Shown here: positions 7,031 to 55,178 of the stretch, one piece after another
How the letters are laid out: each line of letters begins with the position of its first letter
How positions within the stretch are numbered: position 1 is the first letter of the stretch
From: Candidatus Babelota bacterium
Lineage (GTDB): Bacteria; Babelota; Babeliae; Babelales; Chromulinivoraceae
Direction of reading: 5' to 3'
DNA: 64,000 bases
Assembly: GCA_016183005.1 (NCBI GenBank)
Contig: JACPFN010000008.1
Location: forward strand, 11,016 to 75,015
Program-made: the position numbers and the translations under genes
The notes under the pieces: generated by a model
What the model was told of the DNA's origin: nothing
The model's database searches: none
The model's input: only the letters and a program-made list of their open reading frames with translations

Positions 7031-7048
7031 AAGAATTTATCTAAAAAT

Positions 7049-7564: not shown

Positions 7565-7911
7565 AAATATACTTTCTTCTGTTACAAAATGTACGCTTTA
7601 TATGATAATGATATCATAAAAATTCATTACACAAAAGATTCAAATTCAGCTGTATAATAAACAAAAAGTTAATAAGCTTAAAGCTTGCGCAACCAACAAT
7701 AATCCTAAGCTACATCTTGACGTGATTATCTATTTGACTAATATTGTGCTACTGAGTCACGTACTCAAACTCAAGCTAACGCTATAAACAATAAAATAAA
7801 TTACAATCAACAAATACTATTTAAATTAAATGCTTACAATTCTATTTTGTTGATTCTTTTATTTTATAGGTACATGAAATATAAATTTTAAAATTGAAAA
7901 CTATAAAAACT

Positions 7912-12328: not shown

Positions 12329-12562
12329 GATATGGACTCCTTATTATTTTTGCTTGAACATACTATAATGACTCATTTTTTATGTCATGCAATGTATCAT
12401 AATAATTAATTTTTTCAAAGACAAATTGCGACAAAAAATTTATCTGGATTTTAGATTACAACGAAGCAAACAACTATTCACGCAACAAAACTATTGCATT
12501 TTATCTATAAAATATGAAAAAATAAAATTGTAGTTTAATTTTTATTTAAAAAAAGGGTTGGT

Positions 12563-13693: not shown

Positions 13694-13812
13694 CCCCTGA
13701 TTCACCATCAACTCCAGGGGTTGGTTTAAAAGATGGAAATAAAGCAGGAGAAGATACTGAATCTTCTCCTGTCATAATTACACAAAAGGTTCATGTTCCT
13801 GACCATGAAACA

Positions 13813-14268
13813 ATGCAAAAATCTGCTCAATTACTGGTACAATTTCAATCACTTGCACATAATTATTATAAAAATATAGATACTTTAATTGATCAAGTAT
13901 CATCTTCAAACATAGATAACATTGCCCAACAAATTAGAAACGAAATTGGGAATATTAAGTTATTACAAAATTCTTATCTAATCGATGATAAAAACTTACT
14001 AGACGAAGACAAACATCAAATAAGCCAAAAAAAATTAACACACGAAACATTAAAATTATTACTCAAAAAAAAGGTAGATGCTCTTGAGAAAAATGATATA
14101 GCTAAAGCTCAAACAATTACCCAGCTTATACAAAAGTTATCTGAACAACTAAATGTAACCATTATAAATCAATCAAAATCTATAGATATATATCCTTATT
14201 CAAACACAACCGATCTCACACTTCCAGAAAAAAATGAACGCCATCAGAAAAGTCTTGCTAATCTATAA
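13813..14268 (+). CDS. hypothetical protein (possibly the 3' part of the preceding gene)
   Basis: 151-aa ORF. Its frame is already open from 13675, overlapping the last codons of the upstream gene. Confidence 0.45.
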   Translation: MQKSAQLLVQFQSLAHNYYKNIDTLIDQVSSSNIDNIAQQIRNEIGNIKLLQNSYLIDDKNLLDEDKHQISQKKLTHETLKLLLKKKVDALEKNDIAKAQTITQLIQKLSEQLNVTIINQSKSIDIYPYSNTTDLTLPEKNERHQKSLANL

Positions 14269-14362
14269 TTTTTTTAAAAAAACAGACAAAACCCTTTATT
14301 TCATGTTGTTTTTTATGACATACTTAATTTAAATGAGCGTTAAATTTTTAATGGAGTTTTAT

Positions 14363-15217
14363 ATGAAAAATTTTATACAGTTTGGACTTATAACTACCTT
14401 AGTAATAACTATGCCTATATTAGGAGCAGAGGCTGAAAGTCAACACATAACTGAAGGTATACCTTTAGATTCCTTTACCTCAAACATACACCTTCTTACC
14501 CGAGAACAAAAAGCACATCTTTTACAAAATGAAAATACACAGCGAGAAGCAGACCTTTTAGCACAAAAGGAGCTAAAGGGTAGAGCGTGGGCATATGATT
14601 CAAGAACAAATCTCCCAGAAGAAAAATCACGGCCACTGCTCTATCAACAAGAATCTGAACCTTTAAGTTTGAAAAATTTAAGTAAAAAAATAAATGTTTT
14701 TTTTAGTGACCTATGGAATGGATTTTGGCTTAAAAGAACAGTAATAAAATTTTCAGAAAATAATGATGTGAGAAAAATAATTTTCAATGAAAAAGATAAA
14801 GAAGCATTCAAAAAATTAAGCAACAGTAAACAATTAGAAGTCATCAATCATTTTGTTAAAAAGGAAATAGAACGACGAGATGATCAAATTAAAGAATTAA
14901 CAAAGCTCAATAAAAGATATGCAGCGGAATTAATCGAAATAAATCATCATCTTACTCTTTTGGCAAAGAATATATCAATACGAACCACAGACACAATAAT
15001 CACAGGTTTTAATGAACGACTTAATAAATTCCGCACACAAATTAACCTATTATTAATAAACCCAAACAAACACCTTGAATATGACATAGCTACTAAAGAA
15101 TTTAAATTTCATGTAGGAGAAGATATATATAATCAACCAGTAACCAACAATATAGAAAAAAATTCAACCAATAATCCAAATGAATTAACAGTACCACCAA
15201 CACGTCCCACTAATTAA
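14363..15217 (+). CDS. hypothetical secreted protein
   Basis: ATG 14363 is preceded by ggag. Signal MKNFIQFGLITTLVITMPILGAEA, with a coiled-coil middle. Confidence 0.6.
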   Translation: MKNFIQFGLITTLVITMPILGAEAESQHITEGIPLDSFTSNIHLLTREQKAHLLQNENTQREADLLAQKELKGRAWAYDSRTNLPEEKSRPLLYQQESEPLSLKNLSKKINVFFSDLWNGFWLKRTVIKFSENNDVRKIIFNEKDKEAFKKLSNSKQLEVINHFVKKEIERRDDQIKELTKLNKRYAAELIEINHHLTLLAKNISIRTTDTIITGFNERLNKFRTQINLLLINPNKHLEYDIATKEFKFHVGEDIYNQPVTNNIEKNSTNNPNELTVPPTRPTN

Positions 15218-16990: not shown

Positions 16991-17791
16991 ATGGAATTAA
17001 CATACCTTAAAATACTTTGGCTCAAAATTATCACGTGTATCTGTATGACTAGAAATAATGAAATACAACAAGAAAATATACAACAAGAAAACAATCAAGA
17101 ATCAACAGCAGAACAAGAAGAAAAAAAACATTCTCAAAATCAAGAAATACCCAAAGATAATGCTACAAAAATGTTTAATGGCGCTCTTTCAACACCCGTG
17201 CAAGGTAAAATTTTTCAAGGAATCGAACAAGCAAATCATCTCATCATTGAAGGTGCACTAAAAAATGGTGCCAATATTAATACAGCTATAAATGGCCTTG
17301 ACCCCTTACAATATGCGATCAGAAATGGCAAAGATAATATCATAGAATTTTTAATCGAAAATGGAGCTATAGTTAAGCGACATCACATAGAATTAGCAGA
17401 AGGCTACCTCGTGATCTATTTTACAAACCTAAAAGAGAATGATATGGTTTTCTCCCAAAATAATGATACAACAACGGTCCTGTATCAAAATATGAATCGA
17501 TACCGAATAATAGCAGATCTTTTAAAACAGAAAATGCATAACCAACAACATCAACAAGAAAAAGAATTATTAGAAAAATATTTGCAACAACAAGAACAAC
17601 AAGAACAACAAGAACAACAAGAACAAGCAAACACATCTTCAACAGCAACTCAACCAACTCATAATAATGCAACGATAAGCCAACAGGCACGATTATCATT
17701 AAAATCTGCTGCAACAAACCTTACAAAGTTTTCTTCTGCATCTGCAACAAAATTACAAAATAGTACCGGTGATGACGACGACGATTTATAG
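16991..17791 (+). CDS. ankyrin-repeat protein with Q/E-rich low-complexity regions
   Basis: ALKNGANINTAINGLDPLQYAIRNGKDNIIEFLIENGA ankyrin units. QQQEQQEQQEQQEQ tract. Acidic C-terminus GDDDDDL. Confidence 0.72.
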   Translation: MELTYLKILWLKIITCICMTRNNEIQQENIQQENNQESTAEQEEKKHSQNQEIPKDNATKMFNGALSTPVQGKIFQGIEQANHLIIEGALKNGANINTAINGLDPLQYAIRNGKDNIIEFLIENGAIVKRHHIELAEGYLVIYFTNLKENDMVFSQNNDTTTVLYQNMNRYRIIADLLKQKMHNQQHQQEKELLEKYLQQQEQQEQQEQQEQANTSSTATQPTHNNATISQQARLSLKSAATNLTKFSSASATKLQNSTGDDDDDL

Positions 17792-17794
17792 AAT

Positions 17795-19108
17795 CTAGCT
17801 AGGATTAATTATCACCTCTCCACCTCGTCGTGTTAACAATGTGGAAACTTGATAATTTCTTAATTTATTAATATCGCCTCGTTCTTCTGTTAAATATCGT
17901 TGAAAATCTTGTTGATCTTTTCCAGTTAATAATTTTAGCATGCCAGATATACCCTCTATACTTATCTGTGTTTTTACCTCACTCGTTTTAGAGCCTTTAT
18001 ATAAACTCCAAAATTTGGATATTACATCTTGGGGTATACGATCTTTACTATGCTTACGTTCATCATTCTCGCCGCGAGTTTTTATAAATGACCAACCATG
18101 AGCTATAACATCCCACAATGTTCCAATTCCATGTGGTTCCCACTTTATAAAAACATAACCATTTTTACGCTGATCAAAAAGCAAATGCGGAGCATTTAAC
18201 GGCAATCCAAGCTCGCCATTTGACACATCAATATCAAGACCAATATTCTTGCCCTCAGTGCCTCCTTTAAAATGGCTCGATGTACGCTTATAAGCTTTAG
18301 TATTCCAAGATTTCCAAAATGATTCATAATTAGGATTAACAAGGCGTGCATAATTTTTAAGAAAATTAAATAAATTACCCTCACTATCTTTAAATGTTAT
18401 AGTACCACCTTCAAATGCTCGACGATCTTCAAGGATTGATAATTTATAAAAATACCACTGCAATTTAATAATAACTTTTTGATATGCTTGCATAAATTTT
18501 TTAAATATTTCAGAATCAAGGCCAGATGCTATACCCGTCTCAAAGGCTTTAATTAAATTTTGGTTATTTTCTGTATTATTAGGTAACAAAATATTTGGAA
18601 AAATTTGATTAAATATTTTATCGTTATTCCCAGCTGTATGCGAAATATTTTTTTTAAGAATTTCCCAAAGCATCTCACCTTCTTGCATATACTTTAAAGC
18701 TGTATCAATATTTTCAGGTTGTTTATTTTTTGGTAAACTTACTAATTGACTCTCAAGGAAATCTTCTTGATCTTTATCTTCTCTTCTTTCTTGTATTTCT
18801 TTATCTAAATCTAAATCATACATAGTATCTGACATAACAACTGGCTCTGGATTATCTTCTGGATTGGGCACCGTGCTTTTTTTGCTAAAAACATTTTTAC
18901 CCCACTTCACAGCTTTATCACGTAAATCTCTTAAGTGGTCTATCCAGGATTTATTCTGTGCTTCAATTTGTTTAATTTGTTCAATTTTATTTTTAAAATT
19001 TAAGTTATCAATATCCCTATGCAGACCCATATAGGCAGTTCCTTCAAAAGGAGAAAAAACTACTTTTGAAATCGAAACTAAAAAAAATAAAATATTTTTT
19101 TTCATCAT
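17795..19108 (-). CDS. hypothetical secreted protein
   Basis: 437-aa ORF with signal MMKKNILFFLVSISKVVFS. No family recognised. Confidence 0.6.
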   Translation of the reverse strand: MMKKNILFFLVSISKVVFSPFEGTAYMGLHRDIDNLNFKNKIEQIKQIEAQNKSWIDHLRDLRDKAVKWGKNVFSKKSTVPNPEDNPEPVVMSDTMYDLDLDKEIQERREDKDQEDFLESQLVSLPKNKQPENIDTALKYMQEGEMLWEILKKNISHTAGNNDKIFNQIFPNILLPNNTENNQNLIKAFETGIASGLDSEIFKKFMQAYQKVIIKLQWYFYKLSILEDRRAFEGGTITFKDSEGNLFNFLKNYARLVNPNYESFWKSWNTKAYKRTSSHFKGGTEGKNIGLDIDVSNGELGLPLNAPHLLFDQRKNGYVFIKWEPHGIGTLWDVIAHGWSFIKTRGENDERKHSKDRIPQDVISKFWSLYKGSKTSEVKTQISIEGISGMLKLLTGKDQQDFQRYLTEERGDINKLRNYQVSTLLTRRGGEVIINPS

Positions 19109-19126
19109 TACTCATTCTTTTTCAAG

Positions 19127-40296: not shown

Positions 40297-42048
40297 ATGT
40301 TAACTATTAATAGAATATTATTTAAAAAGATATCAACACTCTCATACTTGGTCGTATTATATGCATGCATAATTGTGTTAAGATTATTTTATTTTCAAAT
40401 TATCGAACATGAAAAATTTGAATTATCTGGTAAAAAAAATTTTTTACGCATGAAAGTTATCCCTGCACAACGAGGAAATATTTTAGATTGTAATGGAATT
40501 GCTCTTGCTACAAACCAACCAATTACCAAACTAATTTGGAAAGGAAGCGGCAATATACACCTAAGCAATGAGCAAGAAAAAGCACTTAATAAAATCTATT
40601 CCATTTTACAAAAGGAGCCTGTAAGCAAAGGGCTCATTCAGCGTGCAGAGAAATATTCGCTTGATGTAACAATAGCCCAAAGAATTTCTCAAGAAGAATT
40701 ATCACAAATAGCAGAACAATGCAGCGATATCGAAAATATACATTTTACAACATCTTTTCATAGATTCTACCCTTATAATAAAGTAGCAAGCCACCTACTA
40801 GGATACTTAGGTGATTTATCAGAGTCGGCACAAGGAAAAATGGGTTTAGAAAAAATTTGCCAAGAGACTTTACAAGGAGACCCTGCAATCTTAATGCAAT
40901 CAACGAATTCTTTTGGCTCACTTCTTGATAGCCAAGAGCTTAAACAAGGTAATGCCGGCGAAGATATTGTAACAAGTATCGATTTAGATATTCAATTAAT
41001 GCTTGAAAAAACATTAGAGCAAGAAGAAGCTGGATCTTGTATAATTTTTGAACCCAAAACAGGTTATATCAAAGCATTAGTAAGTAAGCCAAATTTTGAT
41101 CCTTCTATCTTTTCTGAAAAATTAGATGATGAGCAATGGCAAGAGCTTCAAAAAAACAAAGTTTTCTTAAATAGAGCATTTAATGCCACGTACCCTCCTG
41201 CCTCTATTTTTAAATTAGTTACTATCTCTGCAGCACTTGAAGAAAAAATTATCAGCCAGGATTCTCGATTCTTTTGCGCTGGTTATACAAATTTTAAAGG
41301 ACGTGATTATCACTGTAATAACCATACTGGTCACGGATATGTTTCAACAGAAGACTCTCTTGCTCTGTCATGTAATATCCCATTTTTTGAAATAGCAAAA
41401 AAGATACATATCGATACGCTTGCTGATTATGCATTTAAATTTGGGCTAGGAAATAAAACAAATATCCCATTCAGCGAACAAACTGGATTAATACCAACCA
41501 ACAAGTGGAAACTTAAAAACAAAGGTGAACGATGGTGGACTGGAGAAAATCTATCGGCATGTATAGGACAAAGTTTTTTACTCGTAACCCCTATCCAAAT
41601 TGCATGTATGATTGGTGCTATATTTCATGGAAATCTTATAAAACCAAGAATACTCATACATCAACCAATAGAAAAAACACCGATTACCATACAACCTCAA
41701 ACAAGACAATTCTTACAGCTCTGTATGAGATCTGCAAGTAGATTTGGTACAGCAAAAAGAACCAATAAAATTGGTAACTTAATTATTTTTGCAAAAACAG
41801 GTACAGCTCAAACTAAAACTCGAAAAACTAGCGAAGTTCCACAAGAAGCAAAAAATAAAGATGATAAAGAGCATGCATGGTTTGTAAGCTATTTTTATAC
41901 AGAAAATTCAGAACCATTGGTTATGGTTATGCTTTTAGAACATGTAGGTAAATCGATTTATACGGCAAAGGTTGCTGTAAAATTTCTTATTCAATATAAT
42001 GAATGGATTGAAAAAAAGACCATCACCCAAGGTAATGGTCCTTTTTAA
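40297..42048 (+). CDS. mrdA: penicillin-binding protein 2 (class B transpeptidase)
   Basis: N-terminal TM anchor, QRGNILDCNG, and active-site triad motifs SIFK (SxxK), SCN (SxN) and KTGTA (KTG). Confidence 0.85.
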   Translation: MLTINRILFKKISTLSYLVVLYACIIVLRLFYFQIIEHEKFELSGKKNFLRMKVIPAQRGNILDCNGIALATNQPITKLIWKGSGNIHLSNEQEKALNKIYSILQKEPVSKGLIQRAEKYSLDVTIAQRISQEELSQIAEQCSDIENIHFTTSFHRFYPYNKVASHLLGYLGDLSESAQGKMGLEKICQETLQGDPAILMQSTNSFGSLLDSQELKQGNAGEDIVTSIDLDIQLMLEKTLEQEEAGSCIIFEPKTGYIKALVSKPNFDPSIFSEKLDDEQWQELQKNKVFLNRAFNATYPPASIFKLVTISAALEEKIISQDSRFFCAGYTNFKGRDYHCNNHTGHGYVSTEDSLALSCNIPFFEIAKKIHIDTLADYAFKFGLGNKTNIPFSEQTGLIPTNKWKLKNKGERWWTGENLSACIGQSFLLVTPIQIACMIGAIFHGNLIKPRILIHQPIEKTPITIQPQTRQFLQLCMRSASRFGTAKRTNKIGNLIIFAKTGTAQTKTRKTSEVPQEAKNKDDKEHAWFVSYFYTENSEPLVMVMLLEHVGKSIYTAKVAVKFLIQYNEWIEKKTITQGNGPF

Positions 42049-42058: not shown

Positions 42059-43777
42059 TTATTTAGCCTTTTTAATAGAATAGGCAAGCTCAAGAATACG
42101 CTGAACAAATACTGGATCAACTCTTCGATTATCACTTTCTGCGGGCAAGAATTTAGAAGATATTCCTAGTACTGATAACGGCTTAATTTCTAGATTACCT
42201 TTTTCTACGGGTAATACGCTCGAAGAAATTTCAGATACTGATAGCGGCTCAACTTTTAAAGTTTTTAAATTATTTTTTTCTGTTACCAATAATTTAGAAT
42301 ATATTCCAGATAATGCTTTTTTAAATTGTTCAACAATAGATAAGATATTTCCATCAAACTGTTCACGTGATTCAAAGCCTGTAACTATATCTTGAAGCTT
42401 ACTATTTATATTTTCATATCCTACAAAATCAAGATTTGGATTTGCAAAATCTTTCATCCATCTGTTTTGGTTCTGCTGTAATACTGTCAATTTAGTAGCA
42501 GAATTCTCTACAGTTTCAATGCTATTAAATGCCTTACGAATCATATCATTAATTTTTGGTTGAATATTTTGAGTAATTTCATTAAAAAATTCATCTGTAT
42601 ACTGTAAGCGATTTAAATTAATTCTGGCCATTAACTCTTTAAATAAGTTTTCTTGAACTTTTATAGCAGAACTACTCTCTTGAATATTCTTTAAAAGAGT
42701 CTCTATCCTTTTATATAGATTTGTTGCTTTACTATCTTTCTGCACTATCTCTCTTTTTATTTTTGCTAATTGAGCGATCTGTTCTTTTTTAAAATCTTCT
42801 TCTTCTTGCTTAGGAGCCTTCTCAGCTTCTTCCGATGCTCTTTTTACTTGTAATTCTTTTTGTTTACGAACCTTTTCAGCTTCTTCCAATGCTTTTTTTG
42901 CTTGTAATTCTTTAACTTCTAGCTCTCGCACTTTTTTATTAAGCTCTTGCTCTCGTTGCTCTTTTCGTTTCATAATTGCATCAAAATCTACTAGTACAGT
43001 TTCTGAATTTATTCCTTTTGTTTTTTCTTGTTTTTGCAAAGCTAAATATTTTTCTTCTTGTTTTGTTTTATCTTCTAATTCTTGTGTCCTTTGTAACTTT
43101 TGTTCTATTTTTTGTAATACGGTACTTGCTGTTGCTTCTACTTTTTTACTTTTTTGTTCTTCTGTTTGAGCTGTTGCTAATGCTAAAGCAGCTGCATTTT
43201 CTCTTTCTGATTCATTTAATCCTTTTCCTTCCCCCTTTTCTGCCTGTGATTTTTGTGAAATTATAGTTAATCGTTCATTCATTCTTTGCATGTTATCCAA
43301 TACATCCTTATCCCTTGTTTTAATCCTTTGCAATGATTCATTTATTGTTGCTATAGCTTTATCTATGGTAACCGTATCATCTGAAAAAAAGATCTCATAA
43401 GCACTTTCCCATTCAATTAAAGCATTTTTTATAATTTCTATCTGAGATTCTATTACTTTTGAATCACTAGCCACTTTCGTTTTCTCTTTATTAAGCAGTT
43501 GGACTATTATTATATTTGTGGAATTATCTTTTAACTTTGCAGCAATATTTGCCATTGAATCTGCTAAATCTTTTTTCACTTTATCGAAATACTTATTTAA
43601 TGTTGCCCGAACATCTTTAACATTATTTTTATTTTCTTTATCAACCTTGATTGAATAATGTGGTATATCGATATACACGATATTCTTTTGAAAAGATGCT
43701 GCAAAATTAGTACTTGAATATACTAATCCCAAACTCATTACACCGACAGAAAATAGATATAATCTTTTATACATCAT
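42059..43777 (-). CDS. signal-peptide coiled-coil protein, paralog family member 1
   Basis: MMYKRLYLFSVGVMSLGLVYS signal. Long K/E/Q-rich helical core with an internal 54-nt tandem duplication. C-terminal RILELAYSIKKAK motif shared with members 2-4. Confidence 0.7.
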   Translation of the reverse strand: MMYKRLYLFSVGVMSLGLVYSSTNFAASFQKNIVYIDIPHYSIKVDKENKNNVKDVRATLNKYFDKVKKDLADSMANIAAKLKDNSTNIIIVQLLNKEKTKVASDSKVIESQIEIIKNALIEWESAYEIFFSDDTVTIDKAIATINESLQRIKTRDKDVLDNMQRMNERLTIISQKSQAEKGEGKGLNESERENAAALALATAQTEEQKSKKVEATASTVLQKIEQKLQRTQELEDKTKQEEKYLALQKQEKTKGINSETVLVDFDAIMKRKEQREQELNKKVRELEVKELQAKKALEEAEKVRKQKELQVKRASEEAEKAPKQEEEDFKKEQIAQLAKIKREIVQKDSKATNLYKRIETLLKNIQESSSAIKVQENLFKELMARINLNRLQYTDEFFNEITQNIQPKINDMIRKAFNSIETVENSATKLTVLQQNQNRWMKDFANPNLDFVGYENINSKLQDIVTGFESREQFDGNILSIVEQFKKALSGIYSKLLVTEKNNLKTLKVEPLSVSEISSSVLPVEKGNLEIKPLSVLGISSKFLPAESDNRRVDPVFVQRILELAYSIKKAK

Positions 43778-43850
43778 CCTTCATTCTCCTTTTTTAAAAT
43801 TAAATAAGACGATTTTTCATTAGGATACATTTAATATTTTCAAAAAATCA

Positions 43851-43911
43851 ATAAGAAGAGAGAAAGCTTCCTGTTTAGTTTATAGCAGCAAAAAGCTTTC
43901 TCTCTTCTTAT
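43851..43911 (-). terminator. hairpin between family members 2 and 1
   Basis: Perfect 19-bp inverted repeat ataagaagagagaaagctt / aagctttctctcttcttat. Confidence 0.55.
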
Positions 43912-44081
43912 TCTGATTCAAATTGATTAATCATCGAATGGGAATATTTACCTAATCGATGCTCTATTCACAAAGGCTACAGCTCGATTAAAAAACGCAC
44001 ACGGTTTTAATGACGGCTTGGTTTCTTAACGACAACAAAAAGATTTAAAACGCGTGCAACTTTATCCTCTTTTTCTTGCAT

Positions 44082-45722
44082 TTAAGCACGCTTTCTATTG
44101 TCGCGTATCATAGCCTTTCTATCTTTTTCTAATTTAACTACATGAAAAAGCTCAAGTACACGATCAACTGCCTTAAGATCAATTGATAAACTATCATCTT
44201 TTTTCATAAGTAACCCTTGAAGTAATCGTGATATTTTTTCTCTATTTTTTTGTATCAATGTTAATATGTCATTAAAATGATTATGCTCAGAAAAAAAGGA
44301 GTTTGCTAAATAATCCATTCTTCCATCTATTTTTTCAATATCATTAGGATTAGAAATATCTTCTATAAAATCATTTTCCATACGAGATCTTTCTCGATAT
44401 AGACTGATTAAATGATCCAAGCTTATTTTTGCTTGAGAAAAAAGATCAAAAAAGTTTCGTACATCTACCTTTACATCTTCTGATACAGAAGGTAATTTAT
44501 TCAATGTAATATTTAACCCTGTCCAATACTTTACTTGTCCATCTAAAACAGCTTTAGACGTTTCTATGATCTCTTTTAAAGGATCTAATTTTCCTATTTT
44601 AGCTTGGATCTTAGCATCTATCGCAGCATTTTTATCGAATAATGCTACTGTATTCACAAAATTATCTTTGATTTTTTTTATGGCATTATAATTATCATAA
44701 ATTTCTTTCAAATTACTATTAATTAGTACAACATTATCGACATTAACCTTATCAAGAATCTTTCTTGTTTGCTCAATATCACCTATTATTTTATTTGCAA
44801 AATGATAAGCAGCATCTTGATCATTAATTAATTTTTTCTTCTGAACAGAAAGATTTCTTTTAAACTGTTCTGAATTATATTTAAATTTAGCAGAGGTAGA
44901 TAAAGTTAAATATTGAGATTTTCTTATATATTCTTGCATATTGTTTCCAATCTCAAATATGAGATTTTCTTGCTGTTCTCCTACCTCAGTTAGATATTGC
45001 TTGACCAAATTTTGCAAATCGCTCAATTCCTGTTGATTTTTAATATCAGCTATAAATGCTTTTTTATCTGGTATATGTATGCTTACCATGCTGGATGTAG
45101 CAGGGACATCAACAGTATCTGATTTTTTTGTATCTAATATCTCTGTGCTTTCAAAATTTTTTAATACTTTTTGAACTTCATCTTTAATAGATTTTAGCAA
45201 ATCGTACTCTTTTTTAATTTTCTGCAAACTGTCATTAATCTTAATTACAGCAGCTTTTATTTTTTCTTCATTATTTTTGCCAATCACCTTTAATTCTCGG
45301 TCCCAATCATCTAAAGCCATATCTGTCTGCTCAATCTGATCTTTTACTTTTTGACGTATAGATAAAATTGCTTTCTGATCATCCTCAAACATTTTTTTAT
45401 CTCTGCTTAAATTATCTTGAAGCTCTTTTGTATTGCTCGATAATATTACAGATCCAACGGTATCGTTATATGATGCAATATCCGTAGTTATACTTGCTAT
45501 TAATAAACCAAGACCATCTTTGACTTCTTTTAAATAGCTTGCTACTGAATATATTGCTCCATCATTTTCTGAATTGTTTTGCATAGAAAATTTAAGTGGG
45601 TTTTTATCAGGAACATTTATAACAGCATATCCCACCTCAACTTCACCCACAAAACTACCAGGATATACTGCTTGCCAACTCATAATAGAAATCAAAAGCA
45701 AGTGCAATCTTTTATCTATCAT
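44082..45722 (-). CDS. signal-peptide coiled-coil protein, paralog family member 2
   Basis: ATG 45722 (MIDKRLHLLLISIMSWQAVYPGSFVGEVE..YAVINVPDKNP) is preceded by aaaagggagaa; the track start TTG 45746 is less likely. C-terminal VDRVLELFHVVKLEKDRK. Confidence 0.7.
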   Translation of the reverse strand: MIDKRLHLLLISIMSWQAVYPGSFVGEVEVGYAVINVPDKNPLKFSMQNNSENDGAIYSVASYLKEVKDGLGLLIASITTDIASYNDTVGSVILSSNTKELQDNLSRDKKMFEDDQKAILSIRQKVKDQIEQTDMALDDWDRELKVIGKNNEEKIKAAVIKINDSLQKIKKEYDLLKSIKDEVQKVLKNFESTEILDTKKSDTVDVPATSSMVSIHIPDKKAFIADIKNQQELSDLQNLVKQYLTEVGEQQENLIFEIGNNMQEYIRKSQYLTLSTSAKFKYNSEQFKRNLSVQKKKLINDQDAAYHFANKIIGDIEQTRKILDKVNVDNVVLINSNLKEIYDNYNAIKKIKDNFVNTVALFDKNAAIDAKIQAKIGKLDPLKEIIETSKAVLDGQVKYWTGLNITLNKLPSVSEDVKVDVRNFFDLFSQAKISLDHLISLYRERSRMENDFIEDISNPNDIEKIDGRMDYLANSFFSEHNHFNDILTLIQKNREKISRLLQGLLMKKDDSLSIDLKAVDRVLELFHVVKLEKDRKAMIRDNRKRA

Positions 45723-45748
45723 TTTTAATTCTCCCTTTTTGATCAAAC

Positions 45749-45777
45749 AGAATAACGTTTAATCAGACTACACTCAA
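45749..45777 (-). promoter_or_regulatory. candidate sigma70-type promoter of family member 2
   Basis: The minus strand reads TTGAGT - 17 nt - TATTCT about 27 nt upstream of the ATG. The same element is conserved upstream of members 3 and 4. Confidence 0.4.
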
Positions 45778-45799
45778 TATTTTAAAAAAATCAATACGT

Positions 45800-45848
45800 A
45801 TAAAGAAAGCTTCTTATTTGTTTTACAATAACAAGAAGCTTTCTTTAT
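45800..45848 (-). terminator. hairpin between family members 3 and 2
   Basis: ataaagaaagcttctt / aagaagctttctttat inverted repeat (16 bp), about 42 nt after the member 3 stop. Confidence 0.55.
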
Positions 45849-45889
45849 TTAATTCTGATTCAAGTCAATTAATTATCAAATAGTACTAT

Positions 45890-47401
45890 TTACCTATTTG
45901 ATTTTTTCTTTACAAAAACTAAACGACTCAATTCAAGAGTGCGCACAGCTTTAACAATTTTTTGATCCTTAACAGCAACAAAAAGATTTAAAACACGTGC
46001 AACCGCATCCTCTTTTGTTTGCATTTCAACACGTTTTCTAGCTTCGTCCTTCATATCCATTTTATTTTTTTCTAATTTAACTACATGAGAAAGTTCAAGT
46101 ACACGCCCTACTTCTGCAGGATAAATCTTGCGAAATTTTTGTTTTTCAATTAATAATGTTGTAAATAATTCTGATAATTCTCTTTGATATTTTTCAGCGT
46201 CTTTAAGTTTATTTGAAGAAGAATTAGATAATTGACCAAGAGTTAATACTATTTTTGAAATTTCATCATCCATCTTAGCTTTTTCTATAAGATTACTTGT
46301 CTCGCTAATTTTTTCTTCTAATGCTTTTTTATTTTTATTCGATTCTTTAATTTCAGTTAACACATTATCTATATCCGTAATAACTGAATTAAATCCTTTA
46401 AAAATACGATCTCTATCGGGTTTAAATTTATTACCAATATCTTGTATAAACTCAGCTGAATATCTTGAAGAATCAAACTCAATGTCTTTTAATAAATTAT
46501 CAATTCTTCCCAATAATCCTTCCATTAATTCTCTTAATTGAGCAATTTGTTGTATGTTTTGTGCTATATTTTCGTCAAATATTGTTGATCGTTTTTCATT
46601 AAGTTTGACACTTGCCTGTATTGCCACTTTCTCTGCTTCTTCTGCATTTCTTGCTGCTTTTTCTGCATCTTGCTGTGAAACTGTTGCCGCTTTTACCGTT
46701 GTCTTATTAGGGGCTACAGCTGCTGCTTTTTGCGCATCCGCTGCTACTTTTTCTGCTTTTTGCTTATCTGCTCTTGCTTTACGTGCTACTTCATCTGCTT
46801 TATCTTTTGCTGCTTCAGTATCAAATAATGTTATTGAGTTAGTAATGTCGTTCATAATCTTTTCTGCAGCGGTATACTCTTTTAAAATAACCAATAAGTT
46901 GCTATTTATGAAATCTACTTGTGATAATATTCTTCTTTCTTCATTGTGCAAAACTAGACTTAACACATGACCCCATTCTTCCAAAGAAGAATCTATATCA
47001 TTAATTTTTTTTTCAATGTTTTTTACATTAGTTAAAAATGCTACTTGATCATCATTAAATTTTTTTTCCTTTTTATTCGAACTATCGATAAAACCTTGCG
47101 TATAACTAGATTTATCATTATTTACGCGCACAAATTTAGCTAAATAAGATTCAACATCTTTAGCCATCTTTTTTTTAAATGAATCAAGGCTTTCTTTGAC
47201 ACTCTTTAAATATTTTTCTACAGAAGCCATTGCCTTATCATTTTCTCCATTTTTTTGCATATTAAAGCGTAATGGTTCTTTGCCAGGAATATTTATAACA
47301 GCATATCCTGCCGGCTCAACTTCACCCACAAAACTACCTGAATATACTGCTTGCCAACTCATAATAGAAATCAAAAGCAAGCGCAATCTTTTATCTGACA
47401 T
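45890..47401 (-). CDS. signal-peptide coiled-coil protein, paralog family member 3
   Basis: ATG 47401 (MSDKRLRLLLISIMSWQAVYSGSFVGEVE). Ala/Lys-rich centre. C-terminal half is nearly identical to member 4. Three copies of the (R)VLEL..V.K motif at the C-terminus. Confidence 0.72.
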   Translation of the reverse strand: MSDKRLRLLLISIMSWQAVYSGSFVGEVEPAGYAVINIPGKEPLRFNMQKNGENDKAMASVEKYLKSVKESLDSFKKKMAKDVESYLAKFVRVNNDKSSYTQGFIDSSNKKEKKFNDDQVAFLTNVKNIEKKINDIDSSLEEWGHVLSLVLHNEERRILSQVDFINSNLLVILKEYTAAEKIMNDITNSITLFDTEAAKDKADEVARKARADKQKAEKVAADAQKAAAVAPNKTTVKAATVSQQDAEKAARNAEEAEKVAIQASVKLNEKRSTIFDENIAQNIQQIAQLRELMEGLLGRIDNLLKDIEFDSSRYSAEFIQDIGNKFKPDRDRIFKGFNSVITDIDNVLTEIKESNKNKKALEEKISETSNLIEKAKMDDEISKIVLTLGQLSNSSSNKLKDAEKYQRELSELFTTLLIEKQKFRKIYPAEVGRVLELSHVVKLEKNKMDMKDEARKRVEMQTKEDAVARVLNLFVAVKDQKIVKAVRTLELSRLVFVKKKSNR

Positions 47402-47427
47402 TTTTAATTTTCCCTTTTTAATCAAAC

Positions 47428-47456
47428 AAAATAACGTTTAATCAGACTACACTCAA
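47428..47456 (-). promoter_or_regulatory. candidate sigma70-type promoter of family member 3
   Basis: The minus strand reads TTGAGT - 17 nt - TATTTT, followed by aaaagggaaaa and the ATG. Confidence 0.4.
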
Positions 47457-47478
47457 TATTTTAAAAAAATCAATACGT

Positions 47479-47527
47479 ATAAAGAAAGCTTCCTATTTGT
47501 TTTACAACAATAGGAAGCTTTCTTTAT
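47479..47527 (-). terminator. hairpin between family members 4 and 3
   Basis: Perfect 18-bp inverted repeat ataaagaaagcttcctat / ataggaagctttctttat. Confidence 0.55.
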
Positions 47528-47568
47528 TTAATTCTGATTCAAATCAATTAATTATCAAATAGTACTAC

Positions 47569-49074
47569 TTACTTATTTGATTTTTTATTTACAACAGCTT
47601 TTTGATCCTTAACAGCAACAAAAAGATTTAAAACACGTGCAACCGCATCCTCTTTTCTTTGCATTTCAACACGTCTTCTAGCTTCGCCCTTCATATCCAT
47701 TTTATTTTTTTCTAATCTAACTACATGAGAAAGTTCAAGTACACGCCCTACTTCTGCAGGATAAACCTTGCGAGATTTTTGTCCTTCAGTTAATAATGCT
47801 GTAAATAATTCTGATAATTCTCTTTGATATTTTTCAGCGATTTTAAGTGCATTTGAAGAAGAATTAGATAATTGACCAAGAGTTAATACTATTTTTGAAA
47901 TTTCATCATCCATCTCAGATTTTTCTATAAGATTACTTGTCTCACTAATTTTTGCTTCTAATGCTTTTTTATTTTTATTCGATTCTTTAATTACATTTAA
48001 CACATTATCTATATCCGTAATAACTGAATTAAATCCTTTAAAAATACGATCTCTATCGGGTTTAAATTTATTACCAATATCTTGTATAAACTTAGCTGAA
48101 TATCTTGAAGAATCAGACTCAATGCCTTTTAATAAATTATCAATTCTTCCCAATAATCCTTCCATTAATTCTCTTAATTGAGCAATTTGTTGTATATTTT
48201 GTGCTATATTTTTTTCAAATATTGTTGATCGATTTTCATTAAGTTTAACACTTGCCTGTATTGCAACCTTCTCTGCTCCTACTGCATCTCTTGCTGCTTT
48301 TTCTACTTCTCTTGCTGCTTTTTCTGCTGCTACTTTGTTTGTCTTATTAGGAGCTACAGCTGCTACTTTTTCTGCTTCTTGCTTATCTGCTGTTGCTTTA
48401 CGTGCTGCTTCATCTGCTTTATCTTTTGCTGCTTCAGCATCAAACAATGCTATTGAGTCAGCAACCTTATCCACTATTATTTTTGCAGTAGTATACATCT
48501 TTGAAATAACAGACAAACCTTCATTAATTTCATCTAGAAACGATAATATTTTTCCTTCATCATTTTCAGGCTCAAACCAACTCAAAGGATTAAGTGGATT
48601 TTTTCTTTGCTTATTCAGATTAACCAAAGCTGTATCAACCTTATCACTTTTATCTTTTATTTGCTGATCAATCTTTAAAAGAGTTGCTTGATCATCAGGA
48701 AAACCTTCTATTTTTGTACCCTTATTTTTAATAAAATCTACTGTATAATTAGATTTATCATTTTCTACGAGCTTAAATTTAGCTATACCAGATCCAACAT
48801 TTCGAGCCATTTCTTTCTGTAATGAATCAAATTTATTTTTTACTTCTTTTAAATATTGCTTTCCTTCTTCTATTAACACGCCAAGAGCTCCATTGTCTTG
48901 CATATCAGCCGCAAATGGTTCCTTACCTGGAATATTTATAACTGCATATCTTTTAGGCCCCAAAAATGGCGTTTCTCTAAACTCTTCGTTATCTTGGTGA
49001 AATGAGGCGTTTAAACATACTGCTTGCCAACTCATAATAGAAATCAAAAGCAAGCGCAATCTTTTATCTAACAT
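47569..49074 (-). CDS. signal-peptide coiled-coil protein, paralog family member 4
   Basis: MLDKRLRLLLISIMSWQAVCLNA. Divergent N-terminal half. C-terminal half is nearly identical to member 3 but has one fewer C-terminal repeat. Confidence 0.72.
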   Translation of the reverse strand: MLDKRLRLLLISIMSWQAVCLNASFHQDNEEFRETPFLGPKRYAVINIPGKEPFAADMQDNGALGVLIEEGKQYLKEVKNKFDSLQKEMARNVGSGIAKFKLVENDKSNYTVDFIKNKGTKIEGFPDDQATLLKIDQQIKDKSDKVDTALVNLNKQRKNPLNPLSWFEPENDEGKILSFLDEINEGLSVISKMYTTAKIIVDKVADSIALFDAEAAKDKADEAARKATADKQEAEKVAAVAPNKTNKVAAEKAAREVEKAARDAVGAEKVAIQASVKLNENRSTIFEKNIAQNIQQIAQLRELMEGLLGRIDNLLKGIESDSSRYSAKFIQDIGNKFKPDRDRIFKGFNSVITDIDNVLNVIKESNKNKKALEAKISETSNLIEKSEMDDEISKIVLTLGQLSNSSSNALKIAEKYQRELSELFTALLTEGQKSRKVYPAEVGRVLELSHVVRLEKNKMDMKGEARRRVEMQRKEDAVARVLNLFVAVKDQKAVVNKKSNK

Positions 49075-49100
49075 TTTTAATTCTCCTTTTTTGATTAAAT

Positions 49101-49129
49101 AAAATAACTTTTAATTAAACTACACTCAA
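49101..49129 (-). promoter_or_regulatory. candidate sigma70-type promoter of family member 4
   Basis: The minus strand reads TTGAGT - 17 nt - TATTTT at the same distance from the ATG as in members 2 and 3. Confidence 0.4.
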
Positions 49130-49214
49130 TATTTAAAAAAAATCAATACTGTTTTACATCATTACTCTATAAATCTTTAATTGACACTCATTTTATTGCA
49201 TAAATTATACAATA

Positions 49215-49255
49215 AAAAAAATGGTCCATGAAAACTTTCATAGACCATTTTTTTG
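49215..49255 (-). terminator. rho-independent terminator downstream of rpsT
   Basis: atggtccatgaaa / tttcatagaccat inverted repeat (one mismatch) flanked by A and T runs, about 15 nt after the rpsT stop. Confidence 0.6.
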
Positions 49256-49269: not shown

Positions 49270-49596
49270 TTATTTTTTTGCTTTTTTTGCAACAGTCTTT
49301 TTTGTAACTTTTACTTCTGCAACTGGCTGTTCAAAATGAGCTTTCACTTTCAAGGCTAAACGGCTTACTTTGCGAGAAGCTGTTTTTGCATGTAAAGTTT
49401 TTTTGCCCTTTGCTCGTGCACATTTTGACTGCGCATCGTTAAAAAGCTTTTGAATTTCAGCTTCTGTTTTGCCTTCTTGAAGAGCAGTTGTTACTTTTTT
49501 AAAAGCTGTTTTGATAGAAGTTTTACGAGCAACGTTAATTGCTTGACGTTTAACTGACTGGCGAGCTGCTTTTTTTGCTGATGTTTTATTTGCCAT
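49270..49596 (-). CDS. rpsT: 30S ribosomal protein S20
   Basis: MANKTSAKKAARQSVKRQAINVARKTSIKTAFKKV is the canonical S20 N-terminus. Confidence 0.9.
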   Translation of the reverse strand: MANKTSAKKAARQSVKRQAINVARKTSIKTAFKKVTTALQEGKTEAEIQKLFNDAQSKCARAKGKKTLHAKTASRKVSRLALKVKAHFEQPVAEVKVTKKTVAKKAKK

Positions 49597-53330: not shown

Positions 53331-53996
53331 TTATAATTCTGGAAAAGCTGTAAGCATTTCATATATATCACTTTTAGGACGGCGATATAAAACTGTACGC
53401 AAAATAAATTCTGAATTATTTTTATGTTTTACTAGAGCTCTAACAATTAATTTATCACCAACACTTTCTGTCTTAATCATAGAACTTGAACAAATTGCTG
53501 CATAAATATCACCAGGCGTCCAACCTTGAGGAAATGTAGTTTTGTAAAATCTATTACCAATTATATAATCTCTTCCATCAAACAACCAGCAATTAGTCTT
53601 TTCGTCTCTTTCAATTACAGCATTAGAAGATTGATCTTTAGCGGTAAGTGCAGCAACAACTTTATGCATATGACCACCCTGTAAAGTCGCTGTACGATCA
53701 TCCTTAATCACAGGATACATATTAATAATATGCTCAAGATCGATTACTACATTTTTACCATATAACATCTGAGGCTTACCTGCTTTCATTAATAATTCTA
53801 GCTCTATTGAATAATTTAATGAAGTTAATTCCTTACATAATGCTTCTTTTGCATCATGCAATGTTACTCCATTAGGAATTCTTTTATCACCAAACTTGAT
53901 GCTTTCAAGAAGTCCCAATTTATTATTTTTAATCCCAGATGCAACTATTAATGACCCATAAAGTGATAAACTTAATATACCTAATAATTTTTTCAT
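53331..53996 (-). CDS. secreted protein with bacterial EndoU-like nuclease motif set
   Basis: ATG 53996 (MKKLLGILSLSLYGSLIVASG signal). LEHIINM...LQGGHMH....YKTTFPQGWTPGDIYAAI resembles the HI..G..GGH ... K.STFFP..WS...I..AI pattern I recall for the EndoU_bacteria toxin family. Recognised from memory only. Confidence 0.5.
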   Translation of the reverse strand: MKKLLGILSLSLYGSLIVASGIKNNKLGLLESIKFGDKRIPNGVTLHDAKEALCKELTSLNYSIELELLMKAGKPQMLYGKNVVIDLEHIINMYPVIKDDRTATLQGGHMHKVVAALTAKDQSSNAVIERDEKTNCWLFDGRDYIIGNRFYKTTFPQGWTPGDIYAAICSSSMIKTESVGDKLIVRALVKHKNNSEFILRTVLYRRPKSDIYEMLTAFPEL

Positions 53997-54118
53997 ATGA
54001 CACAACCCCTAATAAGAATAAACATTAATGTAATCAATAAAAATTTTCAATAATAATACTTTATTAAAGAAAAAAACATACAGTTCCTTTTGTATATAAT
54101 TCAAGTGCAATTAATTCA

Positions 54119-54528
54119 TCAATCAGCTTTTTCAATTCTTCTTGAAAATAATTCAAGTGTGGCTAATTTATCAGTCAGCATTTTTTCAATTTCAGCAGAA
54201 TATGAATGATCAACATTAATACCAACAAACATGAAAGATCGATCATAAAATAATCACAATACTTCTTCTATTGCTTCATGATGAATCACATGATCTAATT
54301 CTTAATGTAAAACGTCAACATTTCTTCCTTGAATAGCAATATTAAGTCTAACATTAGACCAAGGATGTATTAGTGTTTTAAAATGTGCGCGCTTGGTTGC
54401 TTCTCTCTTGGAAATACTACAAATCTCCATAAAAAGAGCCGCTTGATAGTCAATTGAACCTTGAGACTCCTGCATAGATAATACAATTCCATGACCTATG
54501 CACAATGCAAAAAAATATGCTTTTTCAT
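54119..54528 (-). pseudogene. decayed tandem duplicate of the 54641-55069 gene
   Basis: Same upstream sequence and same start (ATGAAAAAGCAT). The T-tract is one nt shorter than in the intact copy (frameshift). Downstream frame reads CIGHGIVLSMQESQ...RNVDVLH*ELDHVIHHEAIEEVL*LFYDRSFMFVGINVDHSYSAEIEKMLTDKLATLE, colinear with the intact paralog but with two in-frame stops. Confidence 0.7.
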
Positions 54529-54640
54529 AAAAAAACCTGCTTTTAAAGTAATAATAATCATTATAAATATAGCAACTAAAGATAAAACTTAATACCTTTA
54601 ATAAAAATTTTCATCGATAATATTTTATTAATATAGAATA

Positions 54641-55069
54641 CTATAAATTTTTTCCATGTTTTTTTAAACATTTTGAACGCAATACAGTTAATTTATCAAT
54701 TAACATATTTTCAATTGCAACATAATTAGGATCATCAATAGAACCTATAAACATAAGGGGTGGGTTTCGCAATGATCTTAATGTTTCTATTACGCATTCA
54801 TAATTAGTCTCAATGCTTAATTCTTGACGTACAACATCTACATTTTTCGTATGAACAGCCAAATATAATCCAATCTTAGACCAATCATTCATTTGTACCT
54901 GAAAAAAATTTCCTTTGTTATCTTTTGAATGAGAAAATTTACAGAGCTGAGCAAGAAGAGCCGGTGGATATCTAGTGGAAGAAATATCAGAATTTAAAAG
55001 TTGAGTCTTATGCATAGATAATATAATTCCATGACCTATGCATAATGCAAAAAAAAGATGTTTTTTCAT
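54641..55069 (-). CDS. small secreted hypothetical protein (intact copy of the duplicated gene)
   Basis: ATG 55069 (MKKHLFFALCIGHGIILSM signal). 142 aa. Lies immediately downstream of tolB, where pal is usually found, but has no OmpA-like motifs. Confidence 0.55.
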   Translation of the reverse strand: MKKHLFFALCIGHGIILSMHKTQLLNSDISSTRYPPALLAQLCKFSHSKDNKGNFFQVQMNDWSKIGLYLAVHTKNVDVVRQELSIETNYECVIETLRSLRNPPLMFIGSIDDPNYVAIENMLIDKLTVLRSKCLKKHGKNL

Positions 55070-55178
55070 AAAAAACCTGTTTTTTTTGATGATAACAATC
55101 ATTATAAATATAGCAACTAACGATAATTGTTTTATAGAGTTAATAAATATTTTTAAAAATACTGCTTATAAAAAAAGA

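Follow-up and report, generated by a model that had tools for sequence, protein, structure and literature searches.

A lineage-restricted family of exported-looking helical proteins at a fixed locus of variable copy number in Dependentiae

The M and M-like proteins of streptococci are encoded by one to three tandem paralogues at a fixed slot, the mrp-emm-enn cluster of the mga regulon. Their signal peptide and C-terminal end are conserved, and between these lies a hypervariable α-helical rod that diversifies by point change and by recombination with neighboring genes. Here we describe a locus of a Candidatus Babelota bacterium that, set beside this general description and not as a test of homology, has the same traits: tandem paralogues at a fixed slot, conserved ends and a variable helical middle. 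It consists of four genes, m1 to m4, located between rpsT and an mrdA-type gene in a stretch of 64,000 nucleotides (nt), hereafter called the window (GenBank assembly GCA_016183005.1, contig JACPFN010000008.1, positions 11,016 to 75,015). The encoded proteins also differ from M proteins. They have no sequence or Pfam relationship to them and no LPXTG sortase signal (the Gram-positive surface-anchor pattern LP.[TSA]G is absent from 13 of 13 family sequences), and the bacterium is diderm. In addition, M proteins form a parallel dimeric coiled coil, whereas the family described here is predicted to form an antiparallel six-helix bundle within one chain.

The tandem lipoprotein (lpl) cluster of Staphylococcus aureus offers a second comparison. 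In that cluster the evolving unit runs from the 3' end of one open reading frame (ORF) across the intergenic region into the 5' end of the ORF that follows (PMC2568036). A unit of the same layout, 3' end, spacer and 5' end, appears in the window array. The systems are otherwise unlike: the proteins are unrelated, those of the window have no lipobox, the phyla differ and so do the predicted folds. The lipobox of bacterial variable lipoproteins of the Vsp/Vlp/Vmp type ([LVI][ASTVI][GAS]C) is absent from the first 40 residues of every family member.

A third comparison comes from the Dependentiae themselves. In Chromulinavorax destructans 44% of the coding sequences have signal peptides, and these are enriched in orphan genes; Dependentiae rely on Sec, vesicles have been seen, and the signal-peptide orphans are thought to act on the host (PMC6561590). 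In TM6 genomes, components of type II secretion are core, there are two GspD copies, and the outer membrane is degenerate (PMC4776705). The proteins of the window resemble the C. destructans orphans (PMC6561590) in their putative Sec signal peptide, their lack of a recognizable domain, their restriction to one lineage and their presumed role in host manipulation. That class of orphans is general, however, and the report names no such family, whereas the family described here is set by synteny, tandem amplification, predicted architecture and a C-terminal repeat. We conclude that m1 to m4 belong to a new, lineage-restricted family of exported-looking helical proteins, with a fixed locus, conserved ends and regulation, and a variable copy number. 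The original prediction, made from the DNA of the window, had put the array forward as the best candidate in the window for an undescribed system. A single gene family that evolves fast at a fixed locus is a better description than a multi-component system.

m1 to m4 are intact minus-strand ORFs arranged head to tail in the interval 42059-49135 (Table 1), as expected from the predicted array of four same-strand genes of 500-570 codons. The chance probability of a 500-codon open frame at ~30% G+C is ~1e-18, as estimated from base composition, and the G+C content of the array (~29-31%) is the same as that of the remaining window. Alternative TTG starts are present for m2 (at 45746, giving 554 amino acids, aa) and for m3 (upstream at 47425, adding 8 aa). 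Over their whole length, m3 and m4 share 67% of their residues. Identity between m2 and m3 is 44% in the N-terminal 220 aa and ~25% in the last 190, and m1 is 23-26% identical to the other three (E 1e-6 to 1e-7 in pairwise BLAST). A profile of the non-window members matched m4 at E 4e-68, m3 at 1e-66, m2 at 2e-32 and m1 at 4e-20, and a profile built without m1 matched m1 at 8e-26 (leave-out E-values are scaled to a nominal database size of 1.84e9). The matches span the N-terminus to the tail motif, nearly continuously in m1, m3 and m4 and in three separate stretches in m2, and all four are thus full-length members of the family. It had been predicted that the cores are largely unrelated except between m3 and m4. 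Since m1 to m4 are matched from the N-terminus through the tail, this is too strong: the cores have diverged but are homologous.

The N-terminal module and the C-terminal motif that had been predicted to be common to the four genes are both found in m1 to m4. The family N-terminus consists of a signal peptide of the form M-x-[DN]-K-[KR]-L-x-L..., followed by a short β-hairpin of the INIPGK or IPDL type. In m4, for example, the putative signal peptide MLDKRLRLLLISIMSWQAV precedes a YAVINIPGKEP hairpin, the helical body and a tail with two motif copies, at aa 442 and 478, a third copy having been lost. m1 has an enlarged central region and one clear terminal motif, QRILELAYSIKKAK, with two degenerate 19-aa repeats before it.

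Relatives of these proteins are few. Nothing but the window paralogues came out of a word-index search of 5.8e9 proteins, and the same kind of search with a 12-sequence alignment added one weak match to them. An exhaustive HMMER search, in which a four-sequence profile was compared with 1.84 billion representative proteins at E <= 0.001, yielded 12 proteins, comprising window members, eight relatives (P0005-P0012) and one false match to a repeat protein. The eight relatives are 485-668 aa long, matched at E 8e-43 to 2e-5, and each is a singleton cluster. Common to all eight are a signal peptide (M-x-[DN]-K-K-L-x-L-x-L-x-C-x-M-G-x-G-Q-x-x-A), a hairpin with a short motif (INIPGK or IPDL…GKL…FPGG) and a middle rich in Ala, Glu and Lys. 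Their tails carry two or three copies of R-V-L-E-L-x-R-A-V-K, typically as the end of the protein (…ARVLELIRAVKLA). Family-pattern scans, two of GTDB species-representative contigs and one of JGI metagenome contigs, found no relatives. As far as is detectable, the family appears to be confined to a genus-level clade of Dependentiae.

No known family accounts for these proteins, which agrees with the original prediction, in which none was recognized. Pfam and NCBIfam gave nothing above noise for m1 to m4, nor did any Pfam family recur among the 12 members when matches up to E <= 10 were admitted. Matches to PADLOC and PHROGs were scattered, of coiled-coil type and limited to one or two of the 12 members, which does not identify them as defense or phage proteins. 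Comparison of the family profile with PDB sequences found nothing meaningful, and Foldseek searches of PDB and BFVD with models of m3 and P0008 found nothing at E <= 0.001.

The family occupies the same slot in every related genome. We compared the window with six related contigs (L001-L006), taken from two NCBI metagenome-assembled genomes (MAGs), one JGI metagenome and three Logan assemblies. The gene order in all six is tolQ-tolR-tolA-tolB, one or two small orphan ORFs, a gene for an RRM protein, ftsH, IMPase, rpmB, rpsT and then the family. A convergent mrdA closes the slot in the window and in L001, L002, L004, L005 and L006; the L003 contig ends before mrdA. There is one family copy per slot in L004, L005 and L006, there are two in L001 and L002, at least two in L003 (where the contig ends), and four in the window. 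No extra decayed copies were found in the related loci by tblastn, and the spacer between rpsT and the family in L004 (9449-10000), which is 552 nt long vs ~200 nt elsewhere, contains no family remnant by the same search. In the window, a β-CASP nuclease gene lies beyond PBP2, and an inositol monophosphatase gene, ftsH and a tolQ/tolA/tolB-like set lie beyond S20 (Pfam). Because the neighbors are conserved housekeeping genes, the array is in a housekeeping context and not in a mobile element.

A more distant genome, L007, was found by anchoring on PBP2 (PBP2 is 62% and S20 56% identical). Its slot holds two short signal-peptide ORFs of 181 and 105 aa (6766-7636, minus strand), whose C-termini (…VLANIVNVVQALKQA and …AAIDLINLAKS) resemble the family motif by eye only. 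In one of them a long Pro-rich linker, PAPTPAPTPAPTPTPIPTPKPPVPPVPPVPPVP, precedes the C-terminus VDPKVLANIVNVVQALKQA, a tail likeness that is again by eye and that the hidden Markov model (HMM) of the motif does not support. Since neither the family HMM nor the motif HMM supports homology, the two ORFs were not counted as members.

The family changes much faster than its neighbors. When the window is compared with the six related loci, identity is 90-96% for FtsH, 85-88% for PBP2, 78-89% for S20, 75-82% for TolB and 74-78% for IMPase. Over all 21 pairs of loci, PBP2 is 85-91% identical, whereas the best family pair is 22-44% identical. The comparison of copy number and cores among strains that had been proposed with the original prediction therefore yields the expected variation, from one to four copies in the rpsT-mrdA slot and with diverged proteins at each. 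Within the window, the 5' halves of m3 and m4 have a proportion of synonymous differences (pS) of 0.35 and of nonsynonymous differences (pN) of 0.33 (ratio 0.93, Nei-Gojobori). In the 3' halves, pS is 0.035 and pN is 0.052 (ratio ~1.5), from 5 synonymous vs 29 nonsynonymous changes. For flanking genes compared between genomes pN/pS is 0.06-0.23, with pS already near saturation, and for the pair of duplicated N-domains in L002 it is 0.31. Positive selection in the 3' half of m3 and m4 was considered and rejected (p 0.29 vs neutrality); the last 200 codons taken alone would pass as significant, but only through a post hoc choice of region. Despite near-neutral change, none of the 13 family frames, of 439+ to 668 codons, has closed in this AT-rich DNA. 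Conservation is seen in the signal peptide, at several positions of the helix cores and in the tail motif (block scores of 2.08 for the signal peptide and 1.65 for the second motif, and ~0 for the least conserved blocks). These comparisons suggest that the family proteins change at close to the neutral rate while their predicted architecture is kept.

The same locus contains a second variable spot. There, between tolB and the RRM gene, where pal and cpoB would lie in E. coli, are small orphan ORFs with signal peptides, one or two per genome and 99-224 aa long, which are only 29-50% identical between genomes and have no Pfam match. Fast evolution thus appears to be a trait of exported orphan genes in this clade and not of the family alone.

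AlphaFold models were made for m3, from an alignment of the four paralogues only, and for P0008, from 12 sequences. The m3 model (predicted local distance difference test, pLDDT, 73; predicted template modeling score, pTM, 0.61) shows a helix for the signal peptide, then a β-hairpin (33-36 / 44-47), then six long helices (52-95, 102-148, 154-229, 233-309, 316-367 and 371-422) with pLDDT 80-92. The P0008 model (pLDDT 78, pTM 0.62) repeats these six helices and also has a sheet of four strands and, in the tail, a helix with pLDDT 51-67. Predicted strands fall at residues 33-47 in m3 and 43-64 in P0008. Alignment gaps lie at the predicted helix ends, including large insertions at the turn between helices 3 and 4, and this supports the model. 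The body is therefore predicted to be an antiparallel bundle of six long helices within one chain. The original prediction called these proteins coiled coils; the models give an antiparallel long-helix bundle. Three members, P0005, P0007 and P0012 (from L006, L003 and L002, respectively), have an IQ-like stretch (IQMQYRKHKAEQ, IQAIYRKSKADQ and LQMNYRKKKADQ) where helix 4 begins. An assignment to the IQ calmodulin-binding motif (IQxxxRK; PF00612) was rejected: it matched 1 of 12 members, at E 0.033, and its residues are not conserved across the family.

The N-termini are those of proteins that would be exported by Sec through a cleavable signal peptide. Every member has one to three Lys or Arg among its first eight residues and an N-terminal hydrophobic stretch, and AXA-like sites, mostly near residue 21, are present in all members but m2. 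The 13 family sequences contain no lipobox, Tat motif, LPXTG or second hydrophobic segment, and the maximum 19-residue Kyte-Doolittle mean outside the signal peptide is 1.37. Mature proteins would have zero to two cysteines and an isoelectric point of 5.5-9.0.

The other conserved end is the tail. It contains a 13-residue motif, [RH]-[VI]-L-[ED]-L-x-[RHY]-[AV]-V-K, in one to three copies per protein, the last of which is at or near the C-terminus. All complete members have it: m3 has three copies, m4 two, m2 one and a remnant, and m1 one. An HMM of the motif, run on six-frame ORFs of the window and the six related loci (~130 kb), matched only family C-termini. The tail profile has no meaningful PDB match, and the tails have no Pfam match. 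The motif had been predicted to be amphipathic. Its hydrophobic moment (0.03-0.43) is at or below the level of the family central region, where the mean for 13-residue windows is 0.34, and a membrane-binding amphipathic helix was rejected on this basis. The lack of marked amphipathicity speaks against simple in-plane anchoring in a membrane and in favor of a motif buried at a protein interface. Thus, of the predicted export and anchor ends, the conservation holds, while an anchoring role may be supposed but gains nothing from the amphipathicity of the motif. The LLEAIR-like core of the motif recalls WH2. WH2 actin-binding repeats were rejected, because neither 12 full-length members nor 10 isolated tails had a WH2 Pfam match at E <= 10. 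Moreover, the motif is not followed by LKK[VT], in several cases it is the end of the protein, and the tail profile finds no WH2-actin chain in PDB.

The regulatory sequences are also conserved. A promoter-like element, TTGATTTTTTWAAAATATTRARTGTA, has four matches in the window, one upstream of each gene, compared with 0.01 expected for this degenerate 26-mer. Every gene is preceded by a cassette of TATTGATTTTTTT…TTGAGTGTAGT, a 45-nt A/T-rich leader, AAGGAG, 8 nt and the ATG, in which the promoter-like hexamers are TTGATT (-35-like) and, after ~18 nt, TAGTCT, TAGTTT or TATCCT (-10-like). The whole cassette, including the AAGGAG Shine-Dalgarno sequence, can be aligned across m1 to m4, and the promoter, 5' untranslated region (5'UTR) and Shine-Dalgarno sequence are kept upstream of each family gene at all related loci. 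A generic sigma-70 scan of the window did not single out the promoters of the array (33 sites vs 38.6 expected). That scan is not discriminating, and the argument for promoters therefore rests on conservation, not on a consensus score. The cassette at all four genes confirms the prediction that each has a promoter-like element (at least members 2-4) and a ribosome-binding site of its own. The hairpin predicted downstream of each gene is strong after m2, m3 and m4 and only weak after m1, where the 3' end abuts the convergent PBP2 gene. Because each gene has its own conserved cassette and strong hairpins lie between the copies, each copy would seem to form a transcription unit of its own. No regulatory RNA structure was found in the 5'UTR (consensus fold -0.75 kcal/mol, no covariation, no Rfam match in the region). 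Phase variation through the T-run (T5-T8) of the promoter spacer was rejected, since the spacing is held constant by T-to-A substitution and not altered in length, with no evidence of slippage.

Copies within a genome are mostly each other's closest relatives. In a neighbor-joining tree, a simple distance tree from a difficult alignment, m2-m4 group together with 100% bootstrap support, all four window copies with 66%, and the pairs of L002 and of L003 with 100% each. This clustering indicates lineage-specific duplication, concerted evolution, or both. L001 alone keeps two deep family lineages. Since copies within a genome mostly cluster, we rejected two ancient subtypes that would form a heteromeric pair, one (A) by S20 and the other (B) by PBP2. 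Between neighboring copies, conservation is highest over the 3' end of a gene, the hairpin-promoter cassette behind it and the opening 20-85 codons of the gene that follows, and the middles differ. For example, m2 matches m3 at 85% over the intergenic cassette and the initial 257 nt of coding sequence. m3 and m4 form a mosaic in which the last ~740 nt and the downstream intergenic region are 93-98% identical in nucleotide sequence and the first ~800 nt only 42-72%; the 5' halves are 25-55% identical in amino acids. The m2 N-terminal domain occurs twice, at aa 1-193 and 202-373, in two separate matches to the N-domain of the family profile, and the odd core of m2 is thus due to internal duplication, with a diverged second copy of the N-domain. 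An internal N-domain duplication like that in m2 is also found in P0010 (668 aa, L002 7849-9855). P0010, in the first of its N-domains, and its neighbor P0012 are 70% identical, which points to unequal crossing-over between adjacent copies.

This pattern seems to fit a fast-evolving exported protein in an arms race. On balance, and by a modest lean, we favor the view that the family consists of fast-evolving exported helical proteins, either retained at the surface or released, in which the body would face a host or antagonist and the tail would bind a conserved partner. We postulate that a single fast-evolving gene was duplicated in tandem in the rpsT-mrdA slot of a genus-level clade of Dependentiae. 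Each copy would be transcribed alone, from a promoter-like element with a short unstructured 5'UTR and a strong Shine-Dalgarno sequence. Sec would export the product, and the mature form would be an elongated six-helix bundle behind a small β-hairpin, with a flexible tail. The tail might dock to a conserved partner, which could be part of the envelope, a factor in export or sorting, or a target in the host. The helical body would be the exposed, variable part, on the cell surface or released (for example, by the type II secretin or in vesicles), and contact with a eukaryotic host or another antagonist could drive its diversification. Diversity would arise from near-neutral point substitution, tandem duplication, unequal crossing-over (seen in the duplicated N-domains) and partial gene conversion, and conversion might keep the 3' end, intergenic cassette and 5' end alike between neighboring copies.

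Several observations weigh against a host-facing exported family. pN/pS for m3 and m4 is not significantly greater than 1 (binomial p 0.29, 3' half); a ratio of ~1 that is not significantly above it fits weak constraint as well as it fits diversifying selection. Signal-peptide orphans nearby are also only 29-50% identical, and part of the rate contrast may be generic to the exported orphans of the clade. The signal peptides were called by reading sequence features, and m2 has no canonical cleavage site by a simple rule. In the tail, the AlphaFold models are of low confidence (pLDDT 35-67, with ~35 for m3 residues 426-503), the motif is not clearly amphipathic as a helix, and no other protein in the ~130 kb of sampled sequence carries it. 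Finally, the count of four copies comes from one MAG contig that has signs of local assembly errors, in gyrA and argS.

The evidence supports a new orphan family of a familiar evolutionary kind, at a tractable candidate locus for host interaction and strain typing. Dependentiae are a widespread phylum of obligate protist parasites in which hardly any host-interaction factors have been characterized and exported proteins are mostly orphans. The body of the family is ~75% different between genomes whose housekeeping proteins differ by ~10%, and, since the slot lies between conserved genes, it could be amplified, or recovered from metagenome data, by means of conserved primers or anchors. If the proteins are exposed on the surface or secreted, the locus could serve as a marker of strain or host range and as an entry point to attachment and host manipulation. 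In addition, the tail motif could show by what means a degenerate outer membrane retains its proteins.

A more specific form of the host-facing reading is suggested by structural comparison. RH5, PvRBP2a, PvRBP2b and ISG65 sit on the parasite surface. According to their entry titles, these proteins, from Plasmodium (RH5, PvRBP2a and PvRBP2b) and Trypanosoma brucei (ISG65), are all-helical bundles that bind host molecules. Matches to this group recurred for both models: PvRBP2b was the first-ranked Foldseek match of m3 (E 0.05, probability 0.93), and PfRH5, PvRBP2a, PvRBP2b and ISG65 were among the top 30 for P0008 (E 0.3-1.6). None of these matches is significant (E 0.05-1.6, TM score 0.15-0.30, root-mean-square deviation 11-42 Å). 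Generic coiled-coil proteins score equally, and the likeness is therefore a lead only; RH5, the RBPs and ISG65 also differ in being eukaryotic proteins, with no sequence similarity to the family. We speculate, while thinking it rather improbable, that the helical body is a bacterial counterpart of RH5/RBP-like ligands, that the tail motif is a new sorting or anchoring signal of Dependentiae for a hypervariable coat or invasion protein, and that the slot is the main antigenic or host-range locus. If so, the motif would attach a coat or invasion protein to an envelope that lacks normal lipopolysaccharide.

As the main alternative, the family could be an abundant helical spacer of the periplasm or envelope, in the manner of Braun's lipoprotein, in which only length and helicity are constrained and the sequence drifts without any host interaction. 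We consider this unlikely but worth keeping in view. It would explain why the family is present at a fixed slot in six of six related genomes, with PBP2, the tol genes and ftsH as envelope neighbors, why a six-helix architecture is predicted to persist at 20-30% identity, and why pN/pS is not significantly above 1. A spacer would also suit the high expression suggested by the conserved promoter-like element and strong Shine-Dalgarno sequence, and the description of TM6 outer membranes as degenerate (PMC4776705). However, the envelope neighbors themselves are slow (TolB 75-82%, PBP2 85-88%), and a ruler should keep its length, yet the family varies from 485 to 668 aa and from one to four copies, with duplicated domains and one truncated tail. 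The proteins have no lipobox and no conserved terminal lysine, and in L007 (PBP2 62%) the slot is filled by two unrelated short ORFs, so that the family is not conserved phylum-wide. Were the family a periplasmic spacer after all, it would provide a case study in the minimal sequence needs of a helical scaffold.

The copies in the window might instead be dispensable duplicates, amplified neutrally and on their way to becoming pseudogenes. Some decay is real. The 134 nt after the m2 stop are 72% identical to the 3' end of m3 (blastn) and can be read as the second and third motif copies, and tblastn alignments of m3 and m4 continue past the stop to 44025. Because further stops follow the m2 TAA, this is real decay and not a single sequencing error, and it has cost m2 two of its three tail motifs. 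m4 lacks the third motif, pN/pS for m3 and m4 is ~1, and copy number is down to one in three genomes. Set against this, 13 genes of 439+ to 668 codons remain open at ~30% G+C, and the signal peptide, promoter cassette and tail motif have been kept while ~75% of the other residues have changed. At least one copy is present in every related genome, and the predicted fold is confident for two members from shallow alignments. We therefore think general decay very unlikely.

We also give little credence to the possibility that the m3/m4 pair is an assembly artefact, two alleles from different strains joined in series, so that the true copy number is three. The near-identity of the ~740-nt 3' halves and of the intergenic regions downstream is what such a join would produce, and two other genes on the contig are split. 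gyrA (4393-6818, minus strand) is in two ORFs, 6195-6818 and 4393-6198, with a 4-nt overlap and ~30 positions of the DNA_topoisoIV profile absent, which may reflect a deletion made in local assembly or a genuine break in an essential gene. argS (20292-21769, plus strand) is in overlapping ORFs, 20292-20918 and 20867-21769, with ~95 positions of the catalytic-domain profile absent. That each is split, with an internal piece absent, suggests local assembly errors in the MAG contig. In the array, however, the longest exact repeat is 96 nt, which is shorter than usual reads, with differences about every 20 nt, and a four-copy assembly is therefore plausible. The 5' halves of m3 and m4 are very different, the junctions hold complete and slightly different intergenic cassettes, and tandem copies occur independently in three other contigs.

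A multi-component α-helical pore-forming toxin acting on the host membrane, like the tandem Hbl, Nhe or Ahl paralogues, is hardly credible, even though the family combines tandem paralogues with signal peptides and helical bundles 400-500 residues long in a bacterium from a parasitic lineage (PMC6561590): there is no hydrophobic hairpin or tongue (Kyte-Doolittle maximum <=1.37 outside the signal peptide), no toxin-family Pfam match in 12 members at E <= 10, no ClyA, Hbl, Nhe or Ahl structure in the Foldseek top 50 of either model, and three genomes have a single copy, the copies within a genome being mostly recent duplicates and not ancient components.

Table 1. Positions of the array, its putative regulatory features, the slot boundaries and other features (window coordinates unless a contig is named; columns are feature, position, strand and remarks)
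m1	42059..43777	-	572 aa; HYV10_02490, MBI2344919.1; most divergent member; convergent with PBP2
m2	44082..45722	-	546 aa from ATG; HYV10_02495
m3	45890..47401	-	503 aa from ATG; HYV10_02500
m4	47569..49074	-	501 aa; HYV10_02505, annotated hypothetical protein, Ca. Dependentiae; adjoins rpsT
m1 promoter-like element, 5'UTR and Shine-Dalgarno	43778..43855	-	match 43826-43851, 1 mismatch
m2 promoter-like element, 5'UTR and Shine-Dalgarno	45723..45798	-	match 45769-45794, 0 mismatches
m3 promoter-like element, 5'UTR and Shine-Dalgarno	47402..47477	-	match 47448-47473, 0 mismatches
m4 promoter-like element (TTGATT, ~18 nt, TAGTTT), 5'UTR and AAGGAG	49075..49150	-	match 49121-49146
Hairpin 3' of m2 and tail remnant	43855..43907	-	-26.0 kcal/mol, z -4.9
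Hairpin 3' of m3	45800..45848	-	-22.8 kcal/mol, z -7.2; paired changes vs m4 hairpin stem
Hairpin 3' of m4	47479..47527	-	-27.9 kcal/mol, z -9.4; perfect long stem, terminator-like
Decayed m2 tail remnant	43948..44081	-	3' of m2 TAA; reads MQEKEDKVARVLNLFVVVKK (second motif copy), then further stops
m3 C-terminal tail	45893..46126	-	aa 426-503; three motif copies, GRVLELSHVVKLEK, ARVLNLFVAVKDQK and VRTLELSRLVFVKK
mrdA-type PBP2 transpeptidase	40297..42048	+	Pfam Transpeptidase and PBP_dimer; convergent downstream slot boundary
rpsT (ribosomal protein S20)	49270..49596	-	Pfam Ribosomal_S20p, E 2e-18; upstream slot boundary
rpsT terminator	49215-49254		
Second variable spot (tolB to RRM gene)	window 53331-55102; L001 3577-3876; L002 3011-3610; L003 2744-3583; L004 4643-5287		
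Orphan ORFs, first run	11813-12328, 12563-13693, 13813-14268, 14333-15217		no Pfam match at E <= 1e-5
Orphan ORFs, second run	16991-17791, 17795-19108, 19127-20167		no Pfam match at E <= 1e-5

Other parts of the window contain further orphan genes. Two runs of orphan ORFs, at 11813-15217 and 16991-20167, encode proteins of 151-437 aa with no Pfam match at E <= 1e-5. An ORF of 884 aa (32977-35631, plus strand) has as its sole Pfam match a weak sigma-54-interaction AAA+ domain (E 9e-8) near the C-terminal part, and no Pfam assignment over its first ~600 residues. Lastly, an ankyrin-repeat ORF of 185 aa is located at 27752-28309 on the minus strand (Ank_2, E 8e-7) and belongs to a eukaryote-like class that is reported to be abundant in Dependentiae.

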